DNA of 64,000 nucleotides from an uncultured Thermodesulfobacteriota bacterium. Lineage in GTDB: Bacteria > Desulfobacterota > BSN033 > WVXP01. The translations under genes and the position numbers were made by a program. Positions 1,882 to 34,688 of the stretch are shown here, piece by piece. A model generated the notes under the pieces. The model was not told where the DNA came from. It saw only the letters and a program-made list of their open reading frames with translations, and did no database searches. Each line of letters starts with the position of its first letter. Within the stretch, counting starts at the first letter, position 1. Location: contig CAYGBK010000015.1 of assembly GCA_964348095.1 (NCBI GenBank), positions 3,840 to 67,839 of the forward strand, written 5' to 3'.

Positions 1882-3111
1882 ATGTTTGATCTTCTTCTGT
1901 CCGAGGAGGAAAGGTCCCTCAAGAAAGAAACGAGGAGATTCGCCAAAAAGGGGGTCTCAAGTGCCCTTATTCGGAAAATGGACGCAGAAGAGGTCCGTTA
2001 TCCACGGGAGTTTATTGAAAAAGCAGCTGCCCAAAATCTGCTCGGTCTGCGATTCCCCGAGCAGTGGGGTGGCAGGGGATTGAAATGGACGGCTGAGGTT
2101 GCTGCTCTGGAGGAGTTGGGCGTTTTGGGATCCAGCCTCATCTGCCTCTATTCTCTCGTCAGTATCGTCGGAGAAGCGATTGATGCCTTCGGAACAGAGG
2201 ATCAGAAAGAGAGATATCTTAAGCCGACCCTTGAGGGTAGGCTCTGCTGTGCAGAGGCTCTCACCGAACCGAGAGGGGGATCGGATTTCTTCGGGGCAAC
2301 GACCATAGCCCGAAAGGATGGGACGGACTATGTCCTGGATGGGCAAAAGCGCTTCGTGGTCGGCGCTGAGGGGGCCGACTATTTTCTGGTCTATGCAAAG
2401 ACCGATCCCGATGCTCACCCTCACAAGTCGATTTCTGCTTTCCTTGTCGATCGAGACGGGGGAGTGGAGGTCAAACATGTGTATGGCCTTCTCGGATCAC
2501 GGGGTGGCGGGACCGGGAGAATATACTTTCAGGATACAAGAGTTCCTGCGAGGAACCTCGTTGGTCCTGAACATGGCGGGGCTATTGTTTTTAATCGGAT
2601 GATGATCCCCGAGAGACTCACAACGGCGGCGGGTTGCCTCGGTATGGCCCGATGTTGCCTCGAAGTGGCAACGCGCTATAGCGATCGGAGAAAGGCCTTT
2701 GGGGATTTCATCCGCCGATTTCAGGCCGTGAGCTTCAAAGTGGCTGATTCTGTCGCGCGACTCGATGCGGCCCGGAGTCTCGTTTACGTAGCGGCCCGGC
2801 ACGTGGATGACGGCCTCGATTCAAGACGGATCGTCTCAGAAGCTAAGAAGACCTCAACCGAGATGCTCTGGTCGGTCGTGAACGACTGCATGCAGGTCAT
2901 GGGGGGCATAGGCTATACCAACGTCTATCCGATAGAGCGATTTCTCAGAGACGCCCGTCTTCAGATGATCTGGACTGGTACGAATGAGGTCATGAACCTC
3001 CTCATTCAACACGAATACTATAAGGAGCTCCTCGGGGGAAAAGACGATGTGAGGGAAGTGGAGATGGACGCCATGGACGAGGAGGGGGAGGAAGAAAAGG
3101 TTTTTGAATAA
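1882..3111 (+). CDS. acyl-CoA dehydrogenase
   Basis: RBS GGAAAGGAGGG. ACAD signatures TEPRGGSDF and QVMGGIGY. Length 409 aa. Confidence 0.85.
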
Positions 3112-3153
3112 GAAACGGTACGAGATTTCACAACCTGCGCAGGAGAATACGAG

Positions 3154-5331
3154 GTGTTCGGTTATCGCAGAAACACTGGTTTTCGAAGATACCTGAGACT
3201 GGCTAAAAACACGCTGAACAACAACTGGACGGGAAGCTACACAAAACCCTCGCCCAGACTCTATCCTCACCAGTGGAACTGGGATTCAGGTTTCATTGCC
3301 ATCGGCTATTCCCATTATGATCAAAGACGGGCACAAAAGGAAATAATGTCTCTTTTCAAGGCACAGTGGCCCAATGGAATGTTACCCCAGATCGTTTTCA
3401 ACGCCCGTGCCCTGGGGAACTATTTCCCTGAACCCGATTTCTGGCAGATACCTGGGGGCGGACTGACCAGTGGTATCACTATGCCACCGCTTCACGCGAC
3501 GGCATGCCTCCGTATCTACCAGTACGCGAGGCAGAGTGATGAAGCACGGAGTTTCTTGACAACCATGTATCCAAAACTGGTGGCCTCTCACCGGTATCTC
3601 TACCAGAGCAGGGATCCGAAAAAGACGGGCCTTGCATATATCAGACATCCTTGGGAATCAGGCCTGGATAATTCCCCAACATGGGATAGCCCTCTCGAGA
3701 AGATGAGGATCGACAAAAAGGCCCTTCCACCATATGAACGGAAGGACCTTAACCACGGGATCCCTGCTGAACAGCGTCCCAGTGATGACCACTACGATCG
3801 ATACGTTTACCTTGTCGATCTTTTTCGGAGGTATCGATACGACGAAGGGTCGATCTACCGGGAATCTCCATTTCTTGTTCAGGATGTGTTGTTCAACTCG
3901 GTTCTGTCAAGAGCTAACCGTGATCTGTCGGAAATAGGGAAAATACTGAAGATGGATACGGGAGAGGTGAAAGAATGGACAACCGAGACGACTCGTGCCC
4001 TTCGTCAGAATCTCTGGTGTGAGAATTGTAGCCACTTCGAGGCATTCGATCTTGTCCAGGAGGAGTTCATCCATACGTCAACGGTTGCCACCTTCATGCC
4101 TTTGTTCGGTCGGGCCGCCTCAACCGCCCAGGCGGAGCGCCTCTATGAGTATCTCAACTCAATCGCCTTTTGCGAATTGCACCAGGGTAACTGTTTTACC
4201 GTGCCGACACATGACATGACCCAAAAGGGCTATGATCCCCAGAATTACTGGCGGGGACCGATCTGGATCAATATTAACTGGATGCTCTCCCAGGGTCTCC
4301 AGGCATATGGCTACAGGGAAAAGACCGACGCCATGAAAAAAGACTTGGCTCAGCTTCCGATCCGGTTCGGTTTTCACGAATACTTTGACTCCCAGACAGG
4401 GGAAGGCTACGGCTCTGACAATTTCTCTTGGACGGCGGCACTCCTCATCGACCTCATCAGCGACTATTATGAAGAGGACAGAAATCGGTTTGGCTGGTTT
4501 GGATTGGGTGGCGTTCGTCGGCTGAAGCGATGCCGAATCCTCAACGCTATCGATGGTGTCAGATCCGACACAATGGCTGACGTTGCATCCGCCCTGAAGG
4601 CTGGCTTAGGGGACCTCAAAGATAAATTCTTCGATATGAACAGAGGGCTGGTCGATTATGAATCGATGAAGAGATCTCCCGAGTATGCGGAATATCAGAA
4701 GAGGGTGACTCAACTCAAACAGTTTGATTTGGCCCAGCTCGTAACGCGGGAGCAGAAGTTGGCATTCTGGATTAACCTTTACAACGTCCTTGTGGTCCAT
4801 GGGATTGTTGACCTCGGTATCAGCGCATCGGTCAGGGAAGTCCCCGATTTCTTCCGCAACATTTCCTACCAAATCGGGGAGTTCTTGTTTTCTCCCGATG
4901 ACATAGAACACGGCGTTCTCAGGGGAAATGCCCGACCACCTTATGGGATCTTTTCTCGATTCAGAGGAGGCGATAGACGTCGACAGTTCATCCTAGACGA
5001 GGTCGATCCCAGAATCCATTTTGCCTTGGTGTGCGGCTCCCGGTCTTGTGCCCCAATTCGGTTCTACAAGGCAGACCATATCTATGATCAGCTGGATCTG
5101 GCAGCAAGGAATTTTATCAACAGTTCAGAAGTGATCATTTTGCCGGAGAAAGACAAGATTTTTTTATCACAGATTTTTCGTTGGTATGAAAGGGATTTTG
5201 GAGGGAAAAAGGGCGTGTTTCAGTTTCTCCTTCGATATCTCGATAGGGACGAGCGGTCGAGATTTCTCGAGAACCACATGGATCGAATAATCACTGAGTA
5301 CCTGTTCTACGACTGGAATCTGAACCATTGA
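3154..5331 (+). CDS. fusion of a GH63-like (glucosyl/mannosylglycerate hydrolase-type) glycoside hydrolase domain with a DUF547 domain
   Basis: N-terminal about 450 aa carries WNWDSGFIAIGY and HPWESGLDNSPTWD (GH63 / MGH-type acid motif). C-terminal about 250 aa carries LAFWINLYNVLVVHGIV, DPRIHFALVCGSRSCAPIRFY and SQIFRWYERDFGG, which are diagnostic of DUF547. Confidence 0.6.
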   Translation: MFGYRRNTGFRRYLRLAKNTLNNNWTGSYTKPSPRLYPHQWNWDSGFIAIGYSHYDQRRAQKEIMSLFKAQWPNGMLPQIVFNARALGNYFPEPDFWQIPGGGLTSGITMPPLHATACLRIYQYARQSDEARSFLTTMYPKLVASHRYLYQSRDPKKTGLAYIRHPWESGLDNSPTWDSPLEKMRIDKKALPPYERKDLNHGIPAEQRPSDDHYDRYVYLVDLFRRYRYDEGSIYRESPFLVQDVLFNSVLSRANRDLSEIGKILKMDTGEVKEWTTETTRALRQNLWCENCSHFEAFDLVQEEFIHTSTVATFMPLFGRAASTAQAERLYEYLNSIAFCELHQGNCFTVPTHDMTQKGYDPQNYWRGPIWININWMLSQGLQAYGYREKTDAMKKDLAQLPIRFGFHEYFDSQTGEGYGSDNFSWTAALLIDLISDYYEEDRNRFGWFGLGGVRRLKRCRILNAIDGVRSDTMADVASALKAGLGDLKDKFFDMNRGLVDYESMKRSPEYAEYQKRVTQLKQFDLAQLVTREQKLAFWINLYNVLVVHGIVDLGISASVREVPDFFRNISYQIGEFLFSPDDIEHGVLRGNARPPYGIFSRFRGGDRRRQFILDEVDPRIHFALVCGSRSCAPIRFYKADHIYDQLDLAARNFINSSEVIILPEKDKIFLSQIFRWYERDFGGKKGVFQFLLRYLDRDERSRFLENHMDRIITEYLFYDWNLNH

Positions 5332-25350: not shown

Positions 25351-27828
25351 TCACATCAAATTGATCGGATCTACGTCCACATCGAGCTGAACATTGACTG
25401 TTTCATTTTCCACCTTTCCAACCAGTTCACCGACGAACCGACGAAGCCTCTCTGTGTGATCGCTTTTGATAAGCAACTGCCATCGATAACGGCCTTTGAT
25501 TCTGGCAAGGGGGGCGGGACAGGGACCGAGTATGTGGAGATGATCTCTATAGACTTTTCGTTTCTCTCTGATCTGGGTTCCAATCGTCCCAAGGCGCCTG
25601 GCGAATTTTTCGGTCACGTCATCTTTGCTCCCGGAAATCCTGAGGTTGGTGAGGCGCGAGAAAGGAGGATATTGCAACTCCTCCCGGTACAGGATCTCTT
25701 GCTGATAGAAGGTGAGAAAGTCGTGGTCCTTTGCCCTCTGAATACTGTAGTGATCAGGGTTATAGGTCTGAATGATGACTCTACCGGTTTGATCTCCTCG
25801 ACCGGCTCGTCCCGCTGCCTGAGTAAGAAGTTGAAAGGTCCTTTCACTGGCTCGAAAATCCGGAAAATGGAGAACGGTGTCCGCGCAGATGACCCCGACA
25901 AGTGTGATGTTGGGGAAGTCGTGTCCTTTCACGATCATTTGGGTCCCGATGAGGACGTCGATCTTCCGCGATTCCATCGCCTGAACAATTCTCCTGTAGG
26001 CTCCTTTTCTCGTGGTCGTGTCGCGGTCCATGCGAGCGATTCTCGCTGAGGGAATGAGCCTGAGGATCTCGTCTTCCACTCTCTGCGTTCCAATTCCCAG
26101 GGAATGCAGGTTGTAGCCCTCGCATCGGGGACAGATTGCCGGTACGTCCGTGGTGAGGCTACAGTGGTGACATTGAAGGGTCCCCTTTGCGGTATGGAGG
26201 GTCAGCGTAACGCTGCAGTTGGGACATTGAGAGGTCCATCCGCAATCCTGGCACAGAATGAAATTGGCAAATCCCCTCCGATTGAGAAAAAGAAGGCTTT
26301 GGAGCCCCTGTTCTGCATTGATGAGGAGTGCTTCTTTAAGTTGCCCCGAGAAGACGCGGTGCCTGAAATCACCTTTTTCAAGACGCATGTCCACGATATC
26401 CACGGTGGGTAGGAGTCGGGACTCGACTCGCTCGGGGAGTCGGAGGCGGCGGAACTTTTTTGTCGTCGTGTTATAAAAAGACTCCATCGATGGGGTAGCA
26501 GATCCCAGGATCAGGAGGGTGCCACACATTTTGGCCCTCATGACGGCGAGATCTCTGGCGTTGTACTTGAGTTTTTCTTCCTGTTTAAAGCTCGTCTCAT
26601 GCTCCTCATCAACGATGATAATGCCGAGCCTCCTGAAGGGCGCAAAGATTGCTGACCGAGCGCCAATGGCGATGGAAACTTCCCCTTTCAGAATCTGGCG
26701 CCACTGGTCGTATCTCTCACCAGGAGAGAGTCTGCTATGCAAGACCGCGATACCCCCTTTGAACCGTCTTTTGAATCGAGAGATCAACTGGGGTGTCAGA
26801 GAAATCTCGGGGACCAGGACAATGGCCTCCCTGCCGTCCTCAATCACTCGTTGGATCGCCCTCAAATAAACCTCGGTCTTGCCGCTCCCGGTGATTCCAT
26901 GAAGAAGAAAAGGACGAAAACCTCCCTTAGAAATCGATTCCTCGATTTCTGATAGGGCCTTTTCTTGATCGAGGGTAAGAGGGGGCCCAGTCTCAGATCC
27001 AAAGTCCTCATCATCGAAAGGATCCCGATAGATCTCTTTGAAATCGAGTGCCACCATTTCTTTTTTCACAAGACCCCTAAGATACGGATCCACCCTAGGG
27101 AACTTTGCGCGAAGATCCCGGCGAGAAACCCTTTTCATTGATCGGATGAATCTAAGAATTTCCGACTGTTTCGGGGTTAGCGGGGGGTCTCCTTCAGGTC
27201 GGTGTTCTCCGCGAAAGACAATAAATGGTTCGACCTTCGCCCTCGTTTTCATCTTCTTCAGCCGAAGCTCTTCAAAAACTAGATTGCTTTTCTTTAGAGA
27301 GAAGATACGAGAATAGAGGTTTTCAAGTTTCAGACGGCGAGAAAGGCCGTGAATGTCAGCTTCGCCCTCTTGTGCCAGGGTCATGAGCAGGCGGCCGTCT
27401 GCTGACTCTGGCGGGAATTGAGCAAGTCGGGCCCGACCGTCAGGCGTGATCTTTACAATCCGGGACGTCTCTACAATCAACCCCGGAGGCAGACTAGTTT
27501 TGATAACCTCACCCAGAGGATGGTAGTAATAATCGGAGATCCACCTTAGGAACCGAAGCATTTGCTCATCGAAAAGGGCGGTCTGATCCAGTACATCAAT
27601 GACATCTCTCACCCGGGCCGGATCGAGACCGTGAGGTGTTGGCGCTGGAAAAGCGAGAACATATCCTGTGACCTTTCGCCTTTGGAAGGGGACCAGAACT
27701 CTTTTCCCAACCCCCACCTGATCCTTAAGTTCACGGGGAACCCGGTAGGTAAATGTCTTCCGGAGAGGGAGACTAACCGCCACCTCAGTAAAACGTTTCA
27801 TTCTCATTTCATTCCTTGCCTGGCTCAT
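25351..27828 (-). CDS. priA: primosomal protein N' (PriA replication-restart helicase)
   Basis: Walker A GITGSGKTEVY, DEEH box, Cys-rich zinc-binding insert CQDCGWTSQCPNCSVTLTLH...CHHCS...CPRCEG. Possible true start at MKRF (27801). Confidence 0.9.
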   Translation of the reverse strand: MSQARNEMRMKRFTEVAVSLPLRKTFTYRVPRELKDQVGVGKRVLVPFQRRKVTGYVLAFPAPTPHGLDPARVRDVIDVLDQTALFDEQMLRFLRWISDYYYHPLGEVIKTSLPPGLIVETSRIVKITPDGRARLAQFPPESADGRLLMTLAQEGEADIHGLSRRLKLENLYSRIFSLKKSNLVFEELRLKKMKTRAKVEPFIVFRGEHRPEGDPPLTPKQSEILRFIRSMKRVSRRDLRAKFPRVDPYLRGLVKKEMVALDFKEIYRDPFDDEDFGSETGPPLTLDQEKALSEIEESISKGGFRPFLLHGITGSGKTEVYLRAIQRVIEDGREAIVLVPEISLTPQLISRFKRRFKGGIAVLHSRLSPGERYDQWRQILKGEVSIAIGARSAIFAPFRRLGIIIVDEEHETSFKQEEKLKYNARDLAVMRAKMCGTLLILGSATPSMESFYNTTTKKFRRLRLPERVESRLLPTVDIVDMRLEKGDFRHRVFSGQLKEALLINAEQGLQSLLFLNRRGFANFILCQDCGWTSQCPNCSVTLTLHTAKGTLQCHHCSLTTDVPAICPRCEGYNLHSLGIGTQRVEDEILRLIPSARIARMDRDTTTRKGAYRRIVQAMESRKIDVLIGTQMIVKGHDFPNITLVGVICADTVLHFPDFRASERTFQLLTQAAGRAGRGDQTGRVIIQTYNPDHYSIQRAKDHDFLTFYQQEILYREELQYPPFSRLTNLRISGSKDDVTEKFARRLGTIGTQIREKRKVYRDHLHILGPCPAPLARIKGRYRWQLLIKSDHTERLRRFVGELVGKVENETVNVQLDVDVDPINLM

Positions 27829-27992
27829 GGCAGTCGGCCTGGAAGGCGAAAAAAAGCATCGTCGATTTCACAGTCGCCTCTACCCCATTATCCCATGCCC
27901 TCGGCGTTTGTCAAAAGGAAAATCCGGGCCACAAAGGCCACGGGCAAAGAACGAAAACTTCAAGTTTGAGCCCCGGCTCCCGATATATTATA

Positions 27993-30176
27993 ATGGGAGT
28001 GATGAAGGCCACCACATCGATCAAAAAGATTCAGTCAAACTGTGTGCTTGTGTCGACCAGAAGCGTTGGAAACATTCTGTTCGGCTGCCCGCCAGAGATT
28101 ATCAAATGGTTTCTTCGCCGGAAGAGGCCGATACCTTCAATCGTCGTCCTCCCGAGGGACTTCCTCATCGACAACCGGCTAAACGTGGAACCAGAGTTTC
28201 TCATCTATGGAAATTTCTTTCTTCAAAAGAGGAGGCTTACCATCATCGGCACGGGGGGTCAACTCCGACGAATCAAGAGGATTTTCAGGGAGTCTTTCCT
28301 GGGGCCGCGAGGGGTCAGGGAGGGTAAAGGAGAAAGGGATTTCCTCAGGGCCAGGAGAGATGATGGGAAGGCTTTGAAGGTGGAGGATCTCGTCAATCTG
28401 AGTCCTTTCCGGCGCGATCGGGACGGTGTGAGAATCGATGGGGTTACGATCAAAACTACCCGTCCGGGTTGTTTTGAAATCTGGGAAGGGGGCGCCCTAC
28501 TTGGAGAGGTGGATACTACAGTTTTCAAGCTCCCGTCTCACCCACCCGATCTTTTCAAGGAAAAGCCCCTGGAGCCCCCAAGCCTTGGTGTGAGCTTTGT
28601 GGGGACCGGGAGTGGATTCAATCCCTATCGGCGGACCACGAGTTTCATTCTCTGGGTCAACGGGAAGGGTATCTTCGTTGATCCGGTCAAAGACCCGTGG
28701 GTGGAGCTCAACAGGTTAGGAATCGAGGATATGGATGTCCCCTCTGTCTTACTTACCCATTGCCATGCCGACCATGATGCGGGCATGATTCGGGCTGCCA
28801 TTCATCAAAGAAGGATACGCCTCATCACCTCCCGGGTCGTTTTCGAGAGCTTTTCGCGTAAGGCAAAGGCATTGGCCGGGTGTGACATTGAGAAATATGT
28901 CGACTTTGTCGAGATCAATCCTGGCGACACCTACGAGTTGGAGAATGCCTCGATTCGGGTTTCGTCTGCCCTCCACCCCATTCCCACGATCCGCTTTGAG
29001 GTTCTGTTCCGTGACCCGAAATCGAGAAAGCGTCTCAGAGTAGCCTATTCGGGAGACACATGTCTTGACTGCACAAAGATCGAAACTATGTATCGTCGGA
29101 GGATCATCGACAAGAAAAGGCGGGACGAGCTTCTTCACTTTGGCTTTGACGCAGACCTCTACATTCACGAGGCTGGCCAAGAGGCGATCCACACGTCGGT
29201 GCAAGAATTCGAGCGTCTTCCCGATCAAGTCATAAAGAAGCTAATCCTTGTTCATGCCGGAGATCTCCCCAAGGACTTGAAAGGCTTGCGGGTTGCGCAA
29301 GAAGGTGAGACGGTTGAACTGATTCCCCCTACCCCATCCCCTCGGGATGTGATCGAGCTGATTGCCTCGAACTCGATCTTCGAGAGCCTCAAAAGGGAAG
29401 CGGTTGTCCGCATTGCAAAGCAGGCCGTCCTCATACCGTTTAAGGTTGGGCAGAATATCGTTACCCAGGGGAAAAAGGGAGATCGATTCTACCTTATCGC
29501 TCTTGGCAGGGCAAAGGTTTTGGTCGATAACGCGATGAAAGCAGTTCTCGGGAAGGGCGATTATTTTGGCGAGATCTCTCTTCTAAGTGGAAAACCCCGA
29601 AATGCAACCGTCCAGGCCATTTCTGATGGATTGGTTCTGACTTTAGAGAAGGAGACTTTTCTCGAACTGGTCAGAGAAGAACCTTCGATCAACAAACGAC
29701 TGCAAGACGTCCTCAGGCTTAGACCCGTTGTGTCTCAGTTGACCTGTTTTAGAGGTCTCCCATCAGATCAGCTTGCCAGGCTGTCCCTTCGGTTTGAAGA
29801 ATGCAGACGTCGCAAGGGCGATCGGGTGGTTGAACAGAAACGGCGAGGGGATGCATTTTTCGTGCTCACGTCGGGAAGAGCCGTTGTGAGCGTGATGGAT
29901 GGAGAGGGCCGTGACAAGATTATTGCAAAGCTAGGCCCCGGAGACGTCTTCGGAGAAATTGCCCTTCTCAGGAACATCCCACGGACGGCAACGGTCGAGA
30001 TTACCTCCGACTCTGCGACCCTGCTCAAGTTGAGAAAAAAAGACTTCCAGACCCTAACGGCATCGATTCCCAGCCTAAGTTTCTACCTCAATCGGATAAC
30101 CGCTGAGAGATTACGGAAGCTGGCAAGGAGAAAGGCGACCGAATTCCATGCGCGCTTTTTGAGTGAATTGGCATAG
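27993..30176 (+). CDS. metallo-beta-lactamase-fold hydrolase fused to two cyclic-nucleotide-binding (CAP-family) domains; putative cNMP-regulated phosphodiesterase
   Basis: LLTHCHADHDAGM (HxHxDH) with downstream His/Asp ligands. Two CNB signatures: GDYFGEISLLSGKPRNATVQA and GDVFGEIALLRNIPRTATVEI. -10-like TATAAT immediately upstream of the ATG at 27993. The ORF-track start at 27816 overlaps priA and is unlikely. Confidence 0.7.
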   Translation: MGVMKATTSIKKIQSNCVLVSTRSVGNILFGCPPEIIKWFLRRKRPIPSIVVLPRDFLIDNRLNVEPEFLIYGNFFLQKRRLTIIGTGGQLRRIKRIFRESFLGPRGVREGKGERDFLRARRDDGKALKVEDLVNLSPFRRDRDGVRIDGVTIKTTRPGCFEIWEGGALLGEVDTTVFKLPSHPPDLFKEKPLEPPSLGVSFVGTGSGFNPYRRTTSFILWVNGKGIFVDPVKDPWVELNRLGIEDMDVPSVLLTHCHADHDAGMIRAAIHQRRIRLITSRVVFESFSRKAKALAGCDIEKYVDFVEINPGDTYELENASIRVSSALHPIPTIRFEVLFRDPKSRKRLRVAYSGDTCLDCTKIETMYRRRIIDKKRRDELLHFGFDADLYIHEAGQEAIHTSVQEFERLPDQVIKKLILVHAGDLPKDLKGLRVAQEGETVELIPPTPSPRDVIELIASNSIFESLKREAVVRIAKQAVLIPFKVGQNIVTQGKKGDRFYLIALGRAKVLVDNAMKAVLGKGDYFGEISLLSGKPRNATVQAISDGLVLTLEKETFLELVREEPSINKRLQDVLRLRPVVSQLTCFRGLPSDQLARLSLRFEECRRRKGDRVVEQKRRGDAFFVLTSGRAVVSVMDGEGRDKIIAKLGPGDVFGEIALLRNIPRTATVEITSDSATLLKLRKKDFQTLTASIPSLSFYLNRITAERLRKLARRKATEFHARFLSELA

Positions 30177-30177
30177 T

Positions 30178-30753
30178 CTATTTCACCACTTCCACCCTGA
30201 CGACTTTCCCTTCTTTGTCGTAGTGTTTGACGAGTCCCTTCCCCGTGGCTGGATCGATCGTGTGAAACCAGTCGATCCGTTTTTGGTTGGAGCTCTCCCT
30301 CAACCATTTGAGTTGGTAGGTGATGTATTTCATGTGGTAACCGTTTACCTTTCCAATGGCGAGATCGACAAGCTTGATCCAGGTGATTCTCCCGTTCTCG
30401 GTATCCTGGTACCACGCGGTCACCTGATCGATGGTCGTTTTGAAGTTTGTTTCTTCCAGTGCCCGGGAATAGTATACGGTCTCCATGAGTAGCCTAGATT
30501 CAATCTGGTTCTTGTCAATGGGTGAGGAAAAATCGAAGCGAGCGTGGGGGAGGGTCCCTTCCAGCATCTCTATGCCCCACCTCCTTCCCTCGATGTATCC
30601 GCGAACAAAGCCAGCCAAGTAGCTTCTGCCATCAGGTGTCTTGGCATTGTGATTCCACAGTGATCCGTCTGTATAGTCTGGCTCTGCAAGGGCCGGCAAA
30701 GAGATGTAGCCCAAAATAGTCAAAAGCAAAAGGACCCTTTTCATCTTCATCAT
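30178..30753 (-). CDS. secreted hypothetical protein
   Basis: RBS AGGAGGAG. Signal peptide MMKMKRVLLLLTILGYISLPALA. Convergent with the MBL-CNB gene; the stops are 1 nt apart. Confidence 0.55.
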   Translation of the reverse strand: MMKMKRVLLLLTILGYISLPALAEPDYTDGSLWNHNAKTPDGRSYLAGFVRGYIEGRRWGIEMLEGTLPHARFDFSSPIDKNQIESRLLMETVYYSRALEETNFKTTIDQVTAWYQDTENGRITWIKLVDLAIGKVNGYHMKYITYQLKWLRESSNQKRIDWFHTIDPATGKGLVKHYDKEGKVVRVEVVK

Positions 30754-30872: not shown

Positions 30873-31760
30873 CTAGGGCAACAAGGGCCTTGCCGGGTTG
30901 TGCCCGTGAAAGTTCTTCTGGGCTGCCTTTGGAGTGCTGTTAGCGTAACAGTAGATGCACCCCTGGGGACAAGTATCGTACGCTCCGATATCCGTGCTTT
31001 CCACGCACCTGCAAAGCTTTCGCTGGCCCCTGTCTTTCGAGATGGAAAGGTCCAGTCCGAAGAGCCGATTGAGGAGCTCGTCGTCGATGCACTTTCCGTG
31101 GCCGATGCCGAACGCCTCCAGGTCGAATGGTTCGGCACAGGTGACGACCTCGAACCCGTGATTCCCGCCGATCTCGCCGATGAATTTGGGGAGATCACCT
31201 ACCTGTCCCTCCTGATCATGAATATCTGTGACTATGATGTCTTTTCCTCTCTCTAAATGCTTGAGGGTCTTCATTCGTTTTGGGTAGATGTCGAGAAAAC
31301 TGATAACGCATCGGCAGGTAAACCCGCTCAGGGCCTCGGCAATCTCCCCAAAGGTGTCGTGGTGATACCTCTGATCGGTCAAACTGCTGAGAATGATCGG
31401 GTCATATCGCCAGATGATCCGACTCGCCCCTACCCTGCCGCTCAGTCTCTTGAATCTCTCTATTTTCAAAGAAATAGAGCCAGGAGACGATTCGAAGACC
31501 CTCGGGTAATGAACCAAGGTATATTGGAAGTAGTAGCGAAACCCCATCCCATCCAATTCGTCCAGATATGGAATGAGGGGATCGGCGTTTCGTGTCCAAA
31601 AGACAATCCCGTCCACATCTGGTGGCTCGAGGCTGACTCGGGTGGTCTGGCTAGGGCGAAAGGGGGTGCGAGTAAAAGCAAAACCACGTCTGATCCGGTT
31701 CATAAACCATGCGGAGTAATAGGCTGGTATGTCAGTTCTTCTACTGGCGCTAATGATCAT
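30873..31760 (-). CDS. DUF1848-family protein with C-terminal Cx3Cx2C cluster
   Basis: MIISASRRTDIPAYYSAWF... is the characteristic DUF1848 N-terminus. C-terminal CPQGCIYCYA. Confidence 0.65.
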   Translation of the reverse strand: MIISASRRTDIPAYYSAWFMNRIRRGFAFTRTPFRPSQTTRVSLEPPDVDGIVFWTRNADPLIPYLDELDGMGFRYYFQYTLVHYPRVFESSPGSISLKIERFKRLSGRVGASRIIWRYDPIILSSLTDQRYHHDTFGEIAEALSGFTCRCVISFLDIYPKRMKTLKHLERGKDIIVTDIHDQEGQVGDLPKFIGEIGGNHGFEVVTCAEPFDLEAFGIGHGKCIDDELLNRLFGLDLSISKDRGQRKLCRCVESTDIGAYDTCPQGCIYCYANSTPKAAQKNFHGHNPARPLLP

Positions 31761-31885
31761 GGCAGTTTGAACGGTGAAAGCAAAAATGGTAACTTAGGAT
31801 AGATCTTGGACCGGTTAAATTCAAGCGGAAAGGGGACCTGAAACCCGCATTTTGTGAAACCCAAAACAGGGATGGGTGAGTCTAG

Positions 31886-32794
31886 ATGAAGTTTGTTCCC
31901 CCATATGTTCAGCTTTATGAAAGTGGGGAATTGGAGGACAGGATTGAGAAGTTGAACCAGATTCTTAAGTCCTGTGAGCTCTGTCCCCGTCGATGTCGGA
32001 TCGATCGCCTGAACGACGACCTGGGCTACTGCCGTGCTGGGAGTGGCTTGAAGGTGTCCAGCGTCTTTCCTCATTTTGGTGAAGAACCTCCCCTGGTCGG
32101 TCGGCATGGTTCGGGGACGATTTTTCTGGCTCACTGCAATCTTCGCTGTGTCTTTTGCCAGAACTACGACATTAGTCATCATGGAGGTGGGGAGGGAGTA
32201 ACAACCGAGCAGATGGCTCGATATATGATCAAACTCCAGCAGATCGGTTGTCATAATATTAACTTTGTCACGCCAACGCACTATGTCGCACAGATTGTGG
32301 CCGCCTTACCCAAAGCGATTGAGCTGGGCCTTCGAGTCCCTCTCGTTTTCAACTGTGGAGGGTACGAATCCCTGGACGTCATAAAGCTGCTCGATGGGGT
32401 AATCGACATTTATATGCCCGATGTCAAATTCTTCTCTTCCCATGTGGCTGAAAGGCTCTGCAATGCGCCAGACTATCCAGAGGTCGTCCAATCGGTACTC
32501 AAGGAAATGTATCGCCAGGTGGGAGACCTGACGTTGGATTCTCACGGAATCGCCGAGCGGGGTCTTCTTATTCGACACCTCGTCATGCCCCATGACCTGG
32601 CGGGGACCGAGGGCGTTGTTCGGTTTATTGCCCAGAATCTCTCTCGGGACAGCTACGTGAACATAATGGCCCAATACAGGCCTGTTTATCGGGCAGTCGA
32701 GCTTCCGGATATCAATCGTCCCGTCACAACTGAGGAATTCCTGGGGGCTCTCGATGTAGCTCGGAAGTATGGTTTGCACAGGGGTTTTGAGTGA
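31886..32794 (+). CDS. radical SAM enzyme, PflX-like (COG1313; PFL-activase homolog of unknown substrate)
   Basis: CNLRCVFCQN (Cx3Cx2C) plus N-terminal CELCPRRCRIDR...GYC cluster. 302 aa. Confidence 0.8.
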   Translation: MKFVPPYVQLYESGELEDRIEKLNQILKSCELCPRRCRIDRLNDDLGYCRAGSGLKVSSVFPHFGEEPPLVGRHGSGTIFLAHCNLRCVFCQNYDISHHGGGEGVTTEQMARYMIKLQQIGCHNINFVTPTHYVAQIVAALPKAIELGLRVPLVFNCGGYESLDVIKLLDGVIDIYMPDVKFFSSHVAERLCNAPDYPEVVQSVLKEMYRQVGDLTLDSHGIAERGLLIRHLVMPHDLAGTEGVVRFIAQNLSRDSYVNIMAQYRPVYRAVELPDINRPVTTEEFLGALDVARKYGLHRGFE

Positions 32795-33693
32795 AACGCG
32801 ACCAGATCCTTCTCGACGTGTCTCATTTGCGTCAGCAGCTAGAGGAGCTGAGGAACCGCATCGATGCCTTGGAGAAGACCTTTCTAAATGGATCTTTTCT
32901 CACGGACCGGTTAAGAGGGCGCGGTCTTAAGATTCATCGCCACAATCCTCATGATAAGCTTCTTGTTCCCCCAGACCTTTCTCCTGAACTCACCACGCAA
33001 TTCTATGAAAAAATGAAGAAATACTCCTTTCGGCTTTTCTTAAGAGAACTCGTCAAGACTGGGACTCCCTTTTGTCCCAGTGACCTGACTCGGTACTGCT
33101 CAGACCGGGTGGCCGAGGAATATAACCGTTTCCTGAGTGCGACATCCACGGTCTGTTCTCTCAAAGGAGATACGTATCGTCTGAATCGTTCTGGGATTTC
33201 GAGTTTCGGTCCCACCCTAGAGTGGTTTGTGGCACAGATGTTCCAACGGGAATTCGGCTGCCCGGCCACCTATGGGGTCCATTTCAGGGAGACGGATGTG
33301 GGTGGAGACTACGATGTCCTTGCCCTCTGGGAGAATCGTCTCCTCTACGTGGAGGTTAAGTCTTCGCCACCGAAAAGCATTGAGGATCAGGAGATAAAGG
33401 CATTTTTCCTAAGACTCCACGACCTGATTCCTGACCTGGCCTTCTTCTTCAACGACACCCATCTGCGAATGATGGATAAGGTGATTGAGATTTTTAACCG
33501 TGAGATGAAGCGGGTTCCAGAGGGGAGACTGCTAGGAAATCCACCGGAAAGACTCAAAGATGAAATCTATCATATGGACCATTGGATCTACATCTTAAAC
33601 AGCAAGAGAGATATTGTTGGCAATTTCAGTCTCTGTTTGAGAGATCATCTTAGACAGATCAAAGGCCGACGATCGTCATCGCCCGCGAACTGA
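32791..33693 (+). CDS. coiled-coil / winged-helix / PD-(D/E)xK (Mrr-cat-like) nuclease-fold protein, translationally coupled to the radical SAM gene
   Basis: GTG start overlaps the upstream TGA (GTGA). Motif layout TLEWFVAQ (E) ... DVGGDYDVLAL (D) ... YVEVKSS (E-x-K). Confidence 0.5.
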   Translation: MKRDQILLDVSHLRQQLEELRNRIDALEKTFLNGSFLTDRLRGRGLKIHRHNPHDKLLVPPDLSPELTTQFYEKMKKYSFRLFLRELVKTGTPFCPSDLTRYCSDRVAEEYNRFLSATSTVCSLKGDTYRLNRSGISSFGPTLEWFVAQMFQREFGCPATYGVHFRETDVGGDYDVLALWENRLLYVEVKSSPPKSIEDQEIKAFFLRLHDLIPDLAFFFNDTHLRMMDKVIEIFNREMKRVPEGRLLGNPPERLKDEIYHMDHWIYILNSKRDIVGNFSLCLRDHLRQIKGRRSSSPAN

Positions 33694-33765: not shown

Positions 33766-34164
33766 TTATCCCTGTAGGACGTTGATTATGGTCTGCTGGA
33801 TCTTCCGTGAGGCGTCCTGATCGCCGAAAGTCCCCACTCGAATGCCGACCTCCGTGACATCGAGACCTTTGTTCTCAATTTTGATAAGCACACCCTTTCC
33901 GTCGCCCCGGCGTCCCTTGATCCTTCCATTCAGCGCATCCCGCTGCTGACTGGTCACGTTAATGTTCAACTTTTCCAGGGCAGTCAAAGAGGCATCCCAG
34001 GTCCGATCGTAGGGAAAGGGGTACAACACCTTCAGTTCTCCTTTGACATAACTGTACGTCCCCAAACCACTCCCCCCACCGATCCCGACCACAGCAGGAG
34101 TGCAGCCGTAAATAAGTAGAATCGGAAGAAGCAAACCCATCACCAGATACGTTAGCGACTTCAT
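33766..34164 (-). CDS. small lipoprotein of unknown function
   Basis: Lipobox LIYGC. GTYSYVKGELKVLYPFPYDRTWDASLTALEKLNINV is shared with the divergent neighbour. Confidence 0.55.
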   Translation of the reverse strand: MKSLTYLVMGLLLPILLIYGCTPAVVGIGGGSGLGTYSYVKGELKVLYPFPYDRTWDASLTALEKLNINVTSQQRDALNGRIKGRRGDGKGVLIKIENKGLDVTEVGIRVGTFGDQDASRKIQQTIINVLQG

Positions 34165-34295
34165 TTAATTCCCTCACCTCTCGGATAGATTCTTGAACCC
34201 TATATTACCAGAAGTTCCTTGACATTACACCAGAGAAAATCGTAAATGTGGAATCAATTCACCCTGTCCATGGGGCCGGACAATCGAGGAGGAGA

Positions 34296-34688
34296 AAAAT
34301 GGATCGGCTCGGAAAGAGTATCTCCCTTTCGCTTTTATCCCTGTTCGTAGCAGGATGTGCTGCTTTCGTGCTCGGGGCGGGGATGTCAGTTGGGACCTAC
34401 CACGTGGTTAAAGGAGACCTCACGAGATTATATCGGGCGAGCTATGACAAGGCCTGGGAAGCTGCCGTGGTTACGCTGGAGGAACTGGAAATGACAGTTG
34501 TTGATCAAAACAAAGGAGAGGCGGAAGGTTCGATTAAGGCTGAGAGGTTCGATGGGAGTCCTGTCAGGCTCGCCCTCAAGCGCAAAGCTCTCGATGTGAC
34601 ACAGCTCCGGGTCCGTATCGGTCCGATAGGCGACCGGGGGAAAGCCCAACTCTTTCACGAGAGTTTTCGAAAGAATGTTTTTGAGTAG
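34296..34688 (+). CDS. small lipoprotein, paralog of 33766..34164
   Basis: RBS AGGAGGAG. Lipobox FVAGC. GTYHVVKGDLTRLYRASYDKAWEAAVVTLEELEMTV. Confidence 0.55.
   Translation, partial: KMDRLGKSISLSLLSLFVAGCAAFVLGAGMSVGTYHVVKGDLTRLYRASYDKAWEAAVVTLEELEMTVVDQNKGEAEGSIKAERFDGSPVRLALKRKALDVTQLRVRIGPIGDRGKAQLFHESFRKNVFE

Follow-up and report, generated by a model that had tools for sequence, protein, structure and literature searches.

Does a radical SAM enzyme gene that runs stop-to-start into the gene of a nuclease-fold protein mark a dedicated two-protein system? The question is raised by a locus in the window, the 64,000-nucleotide stretch of DNA from an uncultured Thermodesulfobacteriota bacterium analysed here, where a first-pass annotation had described a divergent, partly coupled cluster of three genes. 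The ORF list and the translations confirmed this layout in every element, including the three ORFs, the stop/start overlap, the spacer and the Cys motifs. The DUF1848 gene (30873..31760, minus strand) encodes 295 aa and carries a C-terminal CPQGCIYC motif (residues 264-271; 30948-30971, minus strand). It is separated by a divergent spacer of exactly 125 bp (31761..31885) from a radical SAM enzyme gene (31886..32794, plus strand; 302 aa) of the PflX, or "putative pyruvate formate lyase activating enzyme", type. The latter runs into the gene of a 300-aa protein (32791..33693, plus strand; GTG start), here termed Nuc300, which combines a predicted winged helix-turn-helix (wHTH) with a predicted PD-(D/E)xK nuclease fold and belongs to an unnamed family. 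The two genes have GTGA in common (32791..32794, plus strand), which comprises the TGA stop of the first and the GTG start of the second; the junction reads ...TTTGAGTGAAACGC, and a Shine-Dalgarno-like AGGGG run (32780-32784, plus strand) is situated 6 nt upstream of the Nuc300 start. The flanks of the locus contain priA, gyrA and genes for an rpoD-like sigma-70 factor, an M50 protease and an AsnC-like protein.

The divergent DUF1848 gene and the 125-bp spacer

The DUF1848 protein matched PF08902 over profile positions 1-262 of 262, with 311.6 bits against a cut-off of 30.5 (7e-93). Its gene had been grouped with the other two as one cluster; however, among 80 related genome loci it adjoins the pair only in the three closest relatives (L001-L003), and for this reason it was rejected as a member of the unit. 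DUF1848 is a lineage-specific, unrelated neighbour of the pair. It is the only protein of the locus that clearly matches a PADLOC model, namely that of reverse-transcriptase-associated DUF1848 (PDLC03815, 2e-46), and one member of its cluster bears, as annotation only, the JGI label "DNA repair photolyase". The literature searched mentions DUF1848 only in an accessory role to UG25 reverse transcriptases (PMC9226505). A UG25 DRT with DUF1848, the system to which PADLOC pointed, was discarded because no reverse transcriptase gene, the core of such a system, was found among the flanking ORFs.

The spacer had been proposed to hold inverted repeats shared by the divergent genes, and none was present. 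It contains a short direct repeat, TGAAACCC, in two copies, and a promoter-like TTGAAC-17 nt-TAACTT arrangement (31767-31795, plus strand). In L001-L003, conservation is limited to the DUF1848-proximal half of the spacer, which includes both hexamers, and does not extend to the half adjoining the radical SAM start. No promoter was called in the spacer by the consensus scan, promoter and terminator scans did not exceed the shuffle expectation, and neither this region of the window nor 11 related loci matched an Rfam family. An operator or riboswitch in the spacer was rejected on the lack of an inverted repeat and of an Rfam match, the promoter-like element being a weak, conserved signal.

Motifs and predicted folds of the two coupled proteins

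The radical SAM protein fits the Radical SAM superfamily (PF04055) in having the canonical CX3CX2C motif, here CNLRCVFC (C84, C88, C91; 32135..32158, plus strand), together with a partial TIM-barrel core. Its model reached a pLDDT of 89.7, and the closest structure was that of the pyruvate formate-lyase activase. Upstream of the canonical motif lies an N-terminal Cys4 site (C30, C33, C37, C49; 31973..32032, plus strand; translation CELCPRRCRIDRLNDDLGYC), a probable auxiliary Fe-S or Zn site. All seven Cys residues are invariant in 35 homologs and are also kept in the homologs of Methylocystis, Natronorubrum, Monoglobus and Collinsella (four other phyla; 37-50% identity), and the motifs are thus not a chance occurrence. 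Many homologs at 62-81% identity are named "putative pyruvate formate lyase activating enzyme" by JGI, a name that we take to correspond to K04070/COG1313, and the PflX-type group occurs in both Bacteria and Archaea. Of the proposed PflX-like identity, the motifs, their invariance and the model support a radical SAM enzyme that resembles the PFL activase and has an additional Cys4 site at its N-terminus.

Searches of the PDB and of the literature, including COG1313 and K04070, revealed no solved structure of, or paper on, the PflX-type group, nor biochemical data on the radical SAM or Nuc300 family; likewise, a literature search for radical SAM genes neighbouring restriction endonuclease-like proteins returned nothing relevant. 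Phmmer and profile hmmsearch runs of the radical SAM enzyme, Nuc300 and DUF1848 against the PDB gave no meaningful match. The archaeosine radical SAM enzyme RaSEA presumably belongs to a different COG than the PflX group. As a candidate relative of this group it was set aside, since no NCBIfam match points to it and PMC11298593 gives no RaSEA family.

Nuc300 has no family in Pfam or NCBIfam. Its homologs form 565 clusters at 50% identity, with lengths of about 250-315 aa; among the best 150 of these 565 clusters the longest protein has 402 aa, and no radical SAM-nuclease fusion occurs. Residues 1-60 comprise, according to the AF2 model and the alignment, a long helix (residues 3-32; 32797..32886, plus strand; block pLDDT 84-89) and a conserved RG-containing linker. 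The helix, which is missing from many distant family members, is a possible coiled-coil or dimerisation element. In the linker, L41, R44 and G45 are near-invariant family-wide and lie in a stretch of low pLDDT. The predicted wHTH follows at about residues 65-131 (32983..33183, plus strand), with a conserved YSFR motif within it, and residues 138-295 (33202..33675, plus strand) are assigned to the PD-(D/E)xK nuclease-fold domain from the predicted topology and the invariant residues.

This domain opens with the motif SFGPTLEW (33202-33225, plus strand). The catalytic-type residues are E144 in helix 1 (33220-33222), D173 and D175 of a DYD motif at the start of strand 2 (33307-33315) and E188 and K190 of an EVK motif in strand 3 (33352-33360), all on the plus strand, which are the secondary-structure elements expected for a PD-(D/E)xK site. 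The modelled core (helix 143-155, strands 159-161, 174-180 and 183-190, helix 199-212, strand 216-221) reproduces the alpha-beta-beta-beta-alpha-beta order of this superfamily. The model is of moderate quality (pLDDT 76), falling below 50 at residues 170-172 beside D173. The five residues are invariant in 52 close and 38 distant homologs, down to 24% identity, and the motifs are thus not fortuitous. Foldseek searches with the model retrieved VC1899 (9.7e-5) and FokI (9.2e-4), and the best structural matches overall were Can2, Card1, VC1899 and FokI; TM-scores against FokI-type and other wHTH + PD-(D/E)xK nucleases were low (0.2-0.34), meaning that only the fold is common. Sub-threshold Pfam matches of Nuc300 or its family included DUF4143, Card1_endonuc and Hjc, and the recurrent ones were all PD-(D/E)xK families; Card1_endonuc (PF09002) appeared below threshold in three of the 38 family members, with a best E of 0.057.

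The coiled-coil N-terminus, winged helix and PD-(D/E)xK core announced by the first-pass annotation were all seen in the AF2 model, the Foldseek matches and the invariant E / D-x-D / E-x-K residues, the first as a coiled-coil-like helix. Two of its further attributes did not hold: Mrr_cat (PF04471), invoked for the motif block, gave no match at E<=1 with the protein of the window and did not rank among the best-matching families of the 38 members, and there was no sign of the sequence specificity suggested for Nuc300. As modelled, Nuc300 is a CARF-less Card1-like nuclease fold and not an Mrr_cat protein.

Such a fold might also have been recruited for regulation, with the wHTH sitting on an operator, the PD-(D/E)xK domain acting as a ligand or metal sensor or as a dimerisation module, and Nuc300 autoregulating the operon as a transcription factor. 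A DtxR-like regulator gene beside basal relatives would suit this role. However, it is at odds with the invariance of all catalytic-type residues down to 24% identity, since a degenerate nuclease fold without catalysis does not usually keep them so strictly. The spacer has no palindromic operator and its half by the radical SAM start is unconserved; moreover, nuc300 follows the gene that it would control, and for most of the family this radical SAM gene is not a neighbour. We regard a regulatory role as very unlikely.

Conservation of the gene pair and its possible meaning

The radical SAM gene adjoins the nuc300 gene in 64 of the 80 related loci, and the junction spans -4 to +1 nt, with stop and start fused, in 52 of these 64. 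The translational coupling of the pair, proposed from the window, is thus conserved. The proposal turned on two points, a PD-(D/E)xK core in the predicted structure and the recurrence of the pairing among close radical SAM homologs, and both were found. The paired loci group in a single Desulfobacterota clade, within which four flank types occur, and a lookup from the radical SAM side located a nuc300 homolog downstream in both P0219 and P0211. The adjacency is lost in one nested lineage (L065/L066), and one gene is inserted between the two in L166/L167; basal relatives adjoin the DtxR-like regulator gene mentioned above. Furthermore, a gene for a family-X DNA polymerase (PolX; HHH_8 / DNA_pol_B_thumb / PHP) directly follows nuc300 in 41 of the 80 loci and overlaps it by 4 nt in 14, and the window itself contains none.

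Beyond the clade, this radical SAM gene was found beside distant nuc300 homologs (26-45% identity) in 0 of 80 metagenome loci, whose neighbours are varied housekeeping genes, and PolX was near them in 0 of 80. Conversely, nuc300 was beside none of the four distant radical SAM homologs (Methylocystis, Natronorubrum, Monoglobus, Collinsella), which have other neighbours. The pairing is real within the clade, yet it is a property of neither gene family, and only one group of anaerobic sediment bacteria has it.

Our preferred reading, to which we give about an even chance, is that of a lineage-specific two-gene operon of two independently widespread families, with no obligatory mechanistic link and possibly with a DNA repair theme. 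The two genes, fused stop-to-start in this one clade, would be co-translated from one transcript. Nuc300 would be a stand-alone nuclease whose N-terminal helix probably mediates dimerisation and whose winged helix would bind nucleic acid, and the E144 / D173-x-D175 / E188-x-K190 site is predicted to bind Mg2+ or Mn2+ and to cut a phosphodiester bond; its architecture would equal the winged-helix and nuclease part of Card1/Can2/VC1899 minus the CARF sensor. Because of the distribution of the radical SAM enzyme, Nuc300 is probably not its substrate. For the cell, the likeliest theme is the processing or repair of chromosomal DNA in strict anaerobes, and not defence, because PolX follows in about half of the loci; since the window lacks PolX, this theme is borrowed from the relatives. 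Against this reading, the stop/start fusion has stayed intact through at least four flank changes, which exceeds the usual passive synteny and hints that co-expression or interaction has been selected; in other lineages the two families may conceivably be linked in function in trans.

A closer partnership would unite the radical SAM enzyme, Nuc300 and, in relatives, PolX in a functional module of strict anaerobes, devoted to the repair or processing of a particular lesion or modification in DNA or RNA. Damage to a base or to the backbone would be reversed or converted chemically by the radical SAM enzyme, in the manner of spore photoproduct lyase; Nuc300 would identify or cut the site, and the gap would be filled by PolX. 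The tight adjacency through four flank types, the PolX gene with its own overlaps, the invariant active-site residues of Nuc300 and, as annotation only, the photolyase label on the DUF1848 cluster member are consistent with such a module. However, both adjacencies lie within one clade, neither the radical SAM gene nor PolX being near the distant Nuc300 homologs and nuc300 being beside none of the four distant radical SAM homologs. The pair is separated in L065/L066 and interrupted in L166/L167, and homologs of the radical SAM enzyme in haloarchaea and Alphaproteobacteria retain 46-50% identity, which suggests that its substrate is universal. We therefore hold the repair module to be doubtful, though it deserves consideration. 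A bolder version appears to us unlikely. In it, the PflX-type enzyme and the Card1-like nuclease that lacks CARF, joined in relatives by PolX, would constitute a hitherto unrecognised pathway by which strictly anaerobic syntrophs repair or modify nucleic acids, with radical chemistry and the PD-(D/E)xK nuclease directed at a common lesion or at one another.

At its extreme, this pathway would have a PFL-activase-like enzyme activating the nuclease post-translationally. The radical SAM enzyme would then be a maturase or activase of Nuc300, as PFL-AE is of PFL, and H abstraction or another modification, for which the near-invariant R44-G45 in its flexible segment would be one candidate site, would license the nuclease or tune its activity. 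Two motifs of the radical SAM enzyme, CxxxCxxCxN and GSG, are of the kind seen in activases, translational coupling would entail roughly equimolar synthesis, and L41, R44 and G45 are conserved family-wide despite low pLDDT. Against this, most genes of the Nuc300 family do not adjoin a radical SAM gene, nor do most radical SAM homologs adjoin a nuclease gene; RVxG[FWY], the fingerprint of glycyl radical enzymes, is unmatched in Nuc300, which has no barrel to shelter a radical; and the NCBIfam models of PFL-AE and other activases scored far below their cut-offs. Activation of Nuc300 by its neighbour is accordingly improbable.

The first-pass annotation had further suggested a defence pair or a toxin, of which there was no sign. 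An anti-phage or toxin function of the pair, with or without DUF1848, would accord with the CRISPR ancillary nucleases being the nearest structural relatives of Nuc300, with the PADLOC match of DUF1848 and with the weak pVip-type matches of the radical SAM enzyme (E 0.002-0.008). However, PADLOC and PHROGs returned nothing for Nuc300 and no assignment for the radical SAM enzyme, and Nuc300 homologs were absent from 72,556 plasmids and 50,697 phages (tblastn) and from IMG/VR. Composition is flat across the window, and a defence or mobile element was rejected on these grounds. Moreover, Nuc300 has neither a CARF domain nor any other sensor domain; genes for a reverse transcriptase or a cyclase, CRISPR genes and any phage, plasmid or defence context are missing around the pair; in many MAGs the pair keeps its place, with conserved synteny, among core genes; and DUF1848 adjoins it in three close relatives only. 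A defence or toxin role is thus extremely unlikely.

In our preferred reading of a lineage-specific operon, the pairing is a modest lead that sits among housekeeping genes and is not a new defence system; because the clue is confined to one lineage, it lends no support to the claim of a new system. It matters nonetheless, since contextual clues to the substrate of the PflX-type enzymes are few, and a conserved operon that includes a nuclease and a repair polymerase provides one.

Relation to known radical SAM enzymes and nucleases

The radical SAM enzyme has the GSG...CxxxCxxCxN signature in common with the glycyl-radical activases PflA and NrdG, to which it adds an invariant Cys4 site at the N-terminus and about 60 residues. 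It fell below the cut-offs of the three NCBIfam activase models tested, TIGR02493 (PFLA) and TIGR02495 (NrdG2), both weakly matched, and TIGR02494 (31.8 against 131.15, 21.5 against 231.75 and 14.1 against 174.35), and the radical SAM-nuc300 locus has no glycyl radical enzyme gene. The AmmeMemoRadiSam enzyme (TIGR04337) also has Cys residues N-terminal to CX3CX2C and matched weakly over residues 29-195 (1.1e-7); however, the score was 31 bits against a cut-off of 220, and neither AMMECR1 nor Memo genes are nearby. Spore photoproduct lyase (COG1533, "DNA repair photolyase"), the only well-known radical SAM case directly in DNA repair, is the conceptual model for the repair module.

Like FokI, AF1548, the DUF4143 domain of COG1373 ATPases and Hjc, Nuc300 has, as predicted, a DNA-recognition winged helix and a separate PD-(D/E)xK cleavage domain. 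Its HMM matches to DUF4143 and Hjc were weak and all below the curated cut-offs and, unlike FokI-type systems, its locus lacks a partner methyltransferase and any restriction-modification setting. The cyclic-oligoadenylate-activated CRISPR ancillary nucleases Card1, Can2 and VC1899 (DUF1887, PF09002) share with Nuc300 the order of winged helix followed by PD-(D/E)xK domain, and the modelled wHTH and nuclease module resembles that of Card1/Can2 in structure. At the sequence level, their HMM gave no Nuc300 family match above threshold, and no PDB chain showed significant sequence similarity. Card1 and Can2 have an N-terminal CARF sensor, in place of which Nuc300 has a single long helix and the RG linker; they are CRISPR ancillary proteins, whereas the nuc300 loci have no CRISPR or cyclase genes and housekeeping neighbours. 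Nuc300 defines a sizeable, nameless family that places the Card1/Can2 winged-helix and nuclease module, free of its sensor, in core-genome positions, which suggests that, outside CRISPR signalling, this module occurs as a nuclease of the housekeeping type.

Gene layout and genomic setting

The radical SAM gene (31886-32794, +; 302 aa) lies directly upstream of the gene for a 300-aa protein, here termed nuc300 (32791-33693, +; GTG start), and a DUF1848 gene occupies the other strand (30873-31760, -; 295 aa). The ORF listing reproduced the coordinates that the first-pass annotation had assigned to all three ORFs, as well as its claim of a stop/start overlap: the TGA stop of the radical SAM gene and the GTG start of nuc300 have GTGA in common within the junction TTTGAGTGAAACGC, and an AGGGG run is located 6 nt 5' of the nuc300 start. 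This fused stop/start would lead to co-translation of the two proteins, and the pair is probably co-transcribed. The NCBI names for the three products (NIQ37759-61) are hypothetical protein, radical SAM protein and DUF1848 family protein.

The DUF1848 product is a clean, full-length PF08902 member (311.6 bits versus a cut-off of 30.5) and carries the CPQGCIYC motif attributed to it (30948-30971, -). Its gene is separated from the radical SAM gene by exactly 125 bp, as annotated; the proposal that it forms a cluster with the pair was not sustained, since only L001-L003, the closest three relatives, have it beside the pair. The shared inverted repeat sought in the 125-bp spacer was absent, and the spacer yielded no Rfam match and no call in a consensus promoter scan. 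A promoter-like TTGAAC-17 nt-TAACTT arrangement (31767-31795, +), not called by that scan, is kept in the same three relatives, in which the spacer half adjoining the radical SAM start is not conserved. The spacer also contains a short direct repeat, TGAAACCC, at 31839 and 31855.

The flanks in the window consist of core genes (priA, an MBL-fold protein, two DUF3568 lipoproteins, an M50 protease, an AsnC-type protein, gyrA and a sigma-70 factor), and GC content and skew are unremarkable. No nuc300 homologs were found on mobile elements among 72,556 plasmids, 50,697 phage records and IMG/VR, and the link to defence raised earlier drew no PADLOC match for nuc300. A defence or toxin system, which finds no support anywhere in the genomic context, is the least probable reading and a very improbable one.

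A large ORF (27816-30176, +) combines a metallo-beta-lactamase-fold domain (PF12706) with two PF00027 cyclic-nucleotide-binding domains and lies beside priA only in L001-L003; its listed TTG start overlaps the priA 5' end, so translation may in fact begin at a more 3' position. Between this gene and DUF1848, a 191-aa ORF (30178-30753, -), whose N-terminus resembles a signal peptide and which matches nothing in Pfam or NCBIfam, is conserved only in L001-L003.

The radical SAM enzyme

Translation of the exact sub-ranges recovered both cysteine features noted from the sequence, namely the radical SAM CX3CX2C triad CNLRCVFC (32135-32158, +) and the N-terminal Cys segment CELCPRRCRIDRLNDDLGYC (31973-32032, +). 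The sole family match of the 302-aa protein was the generic Radical_SAM domain (5.7e-11), and its NCBIfam scores were all far below the cut-offs (NrdG2, 31.8 versus 131; AmmeMemoRadiSam enzyme, 31 versus 220; PFLA, 21.5 versus 232). In JGI annotation, homologs sharing 62-81% identity with it bear the name 'putative pyruvate formate lyase activating enzyme'. The triad and residues C30, C33, C37 and C49 are invariant in 35 homologs, and all seven Cys are likewise retained in the Methylocystis, Natronorubrum, Monoglobus and Collinsella homologs. The protein would be a PFL-activase-like enzyme with an additional, probably metal-binding Cys4 site. It would share its substrate with its archaeal and Gram-positive homologs, and nuc300 is therefore an unlikely substrate.

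No relative of the radical SAM protein was detected in IMG/VR by pattern scan. Homologs with 32-43% identity occur on eight unannotated human-gut contigs labelled 'Bacteriophage sp.' (MT835546.1, MT835878.1, MT837979.1, MT835689.1, MT838379.1, MT835673.1, MT835472.1 and MT836872.1). On a Methylocystis rosea plasmid (L162), a second, weak radical SAM-like match (3010-3834, -; 23% identity) lies immediately upstream of, and antisense to, the PflX-type gene, where the PLSDB gene table has no CDS.

Distribution of the pair

One genome per species was scanned for nuc300; of the 239 relatives detected, the best 80 loci were kept, and all come from MAGs with the label Desulfobacterota, 'delta proteobacterium' or Syntrophaceae-like. 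In 64 of the 80 loci, nuc300 was immediately preceded on its own strand by the radical SAM gene, bearing out the expectation that the pairing would recur in other genomes; three further loci lacked upstream DNA. Of the 64 paired loci, 52 have a junction between -4 and +1 nt, and, approached from the radical SAM side, two homologs (P0219 and P0211, 64-65% identity) also had a nuc300 homolog downstream. At the same loci the radical SAM protein is better conserved (61-67% identity) than nuc300 (43-50%). In an NJ tree of nuc300, the paired loci essentially grouped as a single clade, in which four flank arrangements occur (that of the window, SLT-pair-PolX, pair-HU, and others); two loci nested within it (L065/L066) lack the radical SAM gene, and the other unpaired loci (L059, L070-76 and L080) are basal. 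In one basal subgroup (L070-L076), nuc300 is flanked by genes for a DtxR/FeoA-like regulator and a PEP-CTERM protein rather than preceded by a radical SAM gene. In one of the cases approached from the radical SAM side (L166/L167), the radical SAM and nuc300 homologs are split by about 800 bp containing an opposite-strand gene (4994-5317, -) for a 107-aa NTP_transf_2/Polbeta-type nucleotidyltransferase, which resembles a minimal toxin-antitoxin component.

A family-X DNA polymerase gene (PolX; HHH_8, DNA_pol_B_thumb and PHP domains) was the next gene after nuc300 in 41 of the 80 loci (for example, L005/L081 11071-12783 and L168 6153-7880), and in 14 of those 41 the two genes share 4 nt. Because PolX so often follows nuc300, a DNA processing or repair theme is suggested. 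A true radical SAM-nuclease(-PolX) repair module would accord with the fact that the fused pair has persisted while its flanks changed several times, but is weakened by the restriction of the pair to one clade, and we regard it as possible though rather unlikely. No PolX is present anywhere in the window, where two divergent, paralogous DUF3568 lipoprotein genes (33766-34164, -, and 34248-34688, +) lie immediately downstream of nuc300, at the position of PolX in most relatives.

Beyond the clade, a search of metagenome contigs with an alignment (A4) built from distant nuc300 members recovered 80 loci, with products sharing 26-45% identity with nuc300. Neither this radical SAM gene nor PolX occurred in the flanking sequence available for any of the 80; a single locus (L094) showed an unrelated radical SAM-like match (23% identity). 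The neighbours were varied housekeeping genes, the recurrent ones resembling, by sequence inspection, LpxK with a YjbQ-like protein, ADP-forming acetyl-CoA synthetase subunits, an HD-domain protein and phosphofructokinase. Likewise, radical SAM homologs (37-50% identity) in large plasmid/chromid records of Methylocystis, Natronorubrum, Monoglobus and Collinsella had no nuc300 neighbour. Pairing is not a property of the two families. The best-supported reading, which we consider about evenly balanced, is an operon specific to the lineage and made up of two genes that are each widespread independently of the other; any functional link between the two products is putative.

Fold and affinities of nuc300

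No Pfam, NCBIfam, PADLOC or PHROG family was found for nuc300, its only family match being a sub-threshold DUF4143 hit (E 0.0028), and the PDB held no sequence relative, even by profile search. Homologs numbered 3311 among 90% clusters, and the family comprised 565 clusters at 50% identity (E<=1e-3); in the best 150 of these, the members are stand-alone proteins of about 250-315 aa without fusions. The AF2 model (pLDDT 76.3, pTM 0.64) predicts a long N-terminal helix (residues 3-32), a winged-helix region (helices 65-75, 78-90 and 105-117; hairpin 121-131) and a C-terminal part (H143-155, E159-161, E174-180, E183-190, H199-212, E216-221) whose modelled element order from residue 143 on is that of a PD-(D/E)xK core. 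Foldseek matched VC1899 (9.7e-5) and FokI (9.2e-4). Catalytic-type residues are placed at E144 in helix 1, D173/D175 at the start of strand 2 and E188-x-K190 in strand 3, within the translated motifs SFGPTLEW (33202-33225, +), DYD (33307-33315, +) and EVK (33352-33360, +). E144, D173, D175, E188 and K190 do not vary among 52 homologs, nor among 38 members whose identity is only 24-41%; R81, G140, G172, R208 and D222 are likewise invariant in this distant set.

The nuclease fold of the first-pass annotation was therefore upheld as PD-(D/E)xK by model topology, Foldseek and invariant residues, but its kinship with Mrr was not: Mrr_cat was absent when the 38 distant members were scanned one by one against Pfam, the only recurrent weak matches being DUF4143 (4), Card1_endonuc (3) and Hjc (3), and this assignment was rejected. 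The winged helix would bind nucleic acid, and nuc300 may act as an autonomous metal-dependent nuclease, probably dimeric, although we infer both catalysis and dimerisation. That nuc300 is instead a nuclease-fold transcription factor is highly unlikely: its catalytic residues are invariant, and no operator was found.

The segment that joins the N-terminal helix to the winged helix is modelled with low confidence and is probably flexible; within it (residues 41-45; 32911-32925), L41, R44 and G45 are nearly invariant family-wide, with 'RRG[FYL]' in many members. Such a segment, together with PFL-AE as the closest structure of the radical SAM enzyme, would suit a maturase acting on nuc300; nuc300 has no glycyl-radical fingerprint, however, and family-wide linkage of the two is missing, so that this reading is improbable, if slightly less so than a transcription factor.

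Searches of the literature, the PDB and family collections yielded neither a publication nor a solved structure nor a curated family for nuc300 or the PflX-type enzyme, and nuc300 is for this reason a new, unnamed family in a well-known fold. Its operon with the radical SAM enzyme appears undescribed and is confined to one bacterial clade; the pair gives no evidence of a new kind of system and offers a reasonable lead toward what an orphan group of radical SAM enzymes acts on. The nearest relative of nuc300 is the wHTH and nuclease part of the DUF1887/Card1 group, whose members possess a CARF domain, whereas nuc300 has none; its domain logic is thus a known one, Card1-like without CARF.
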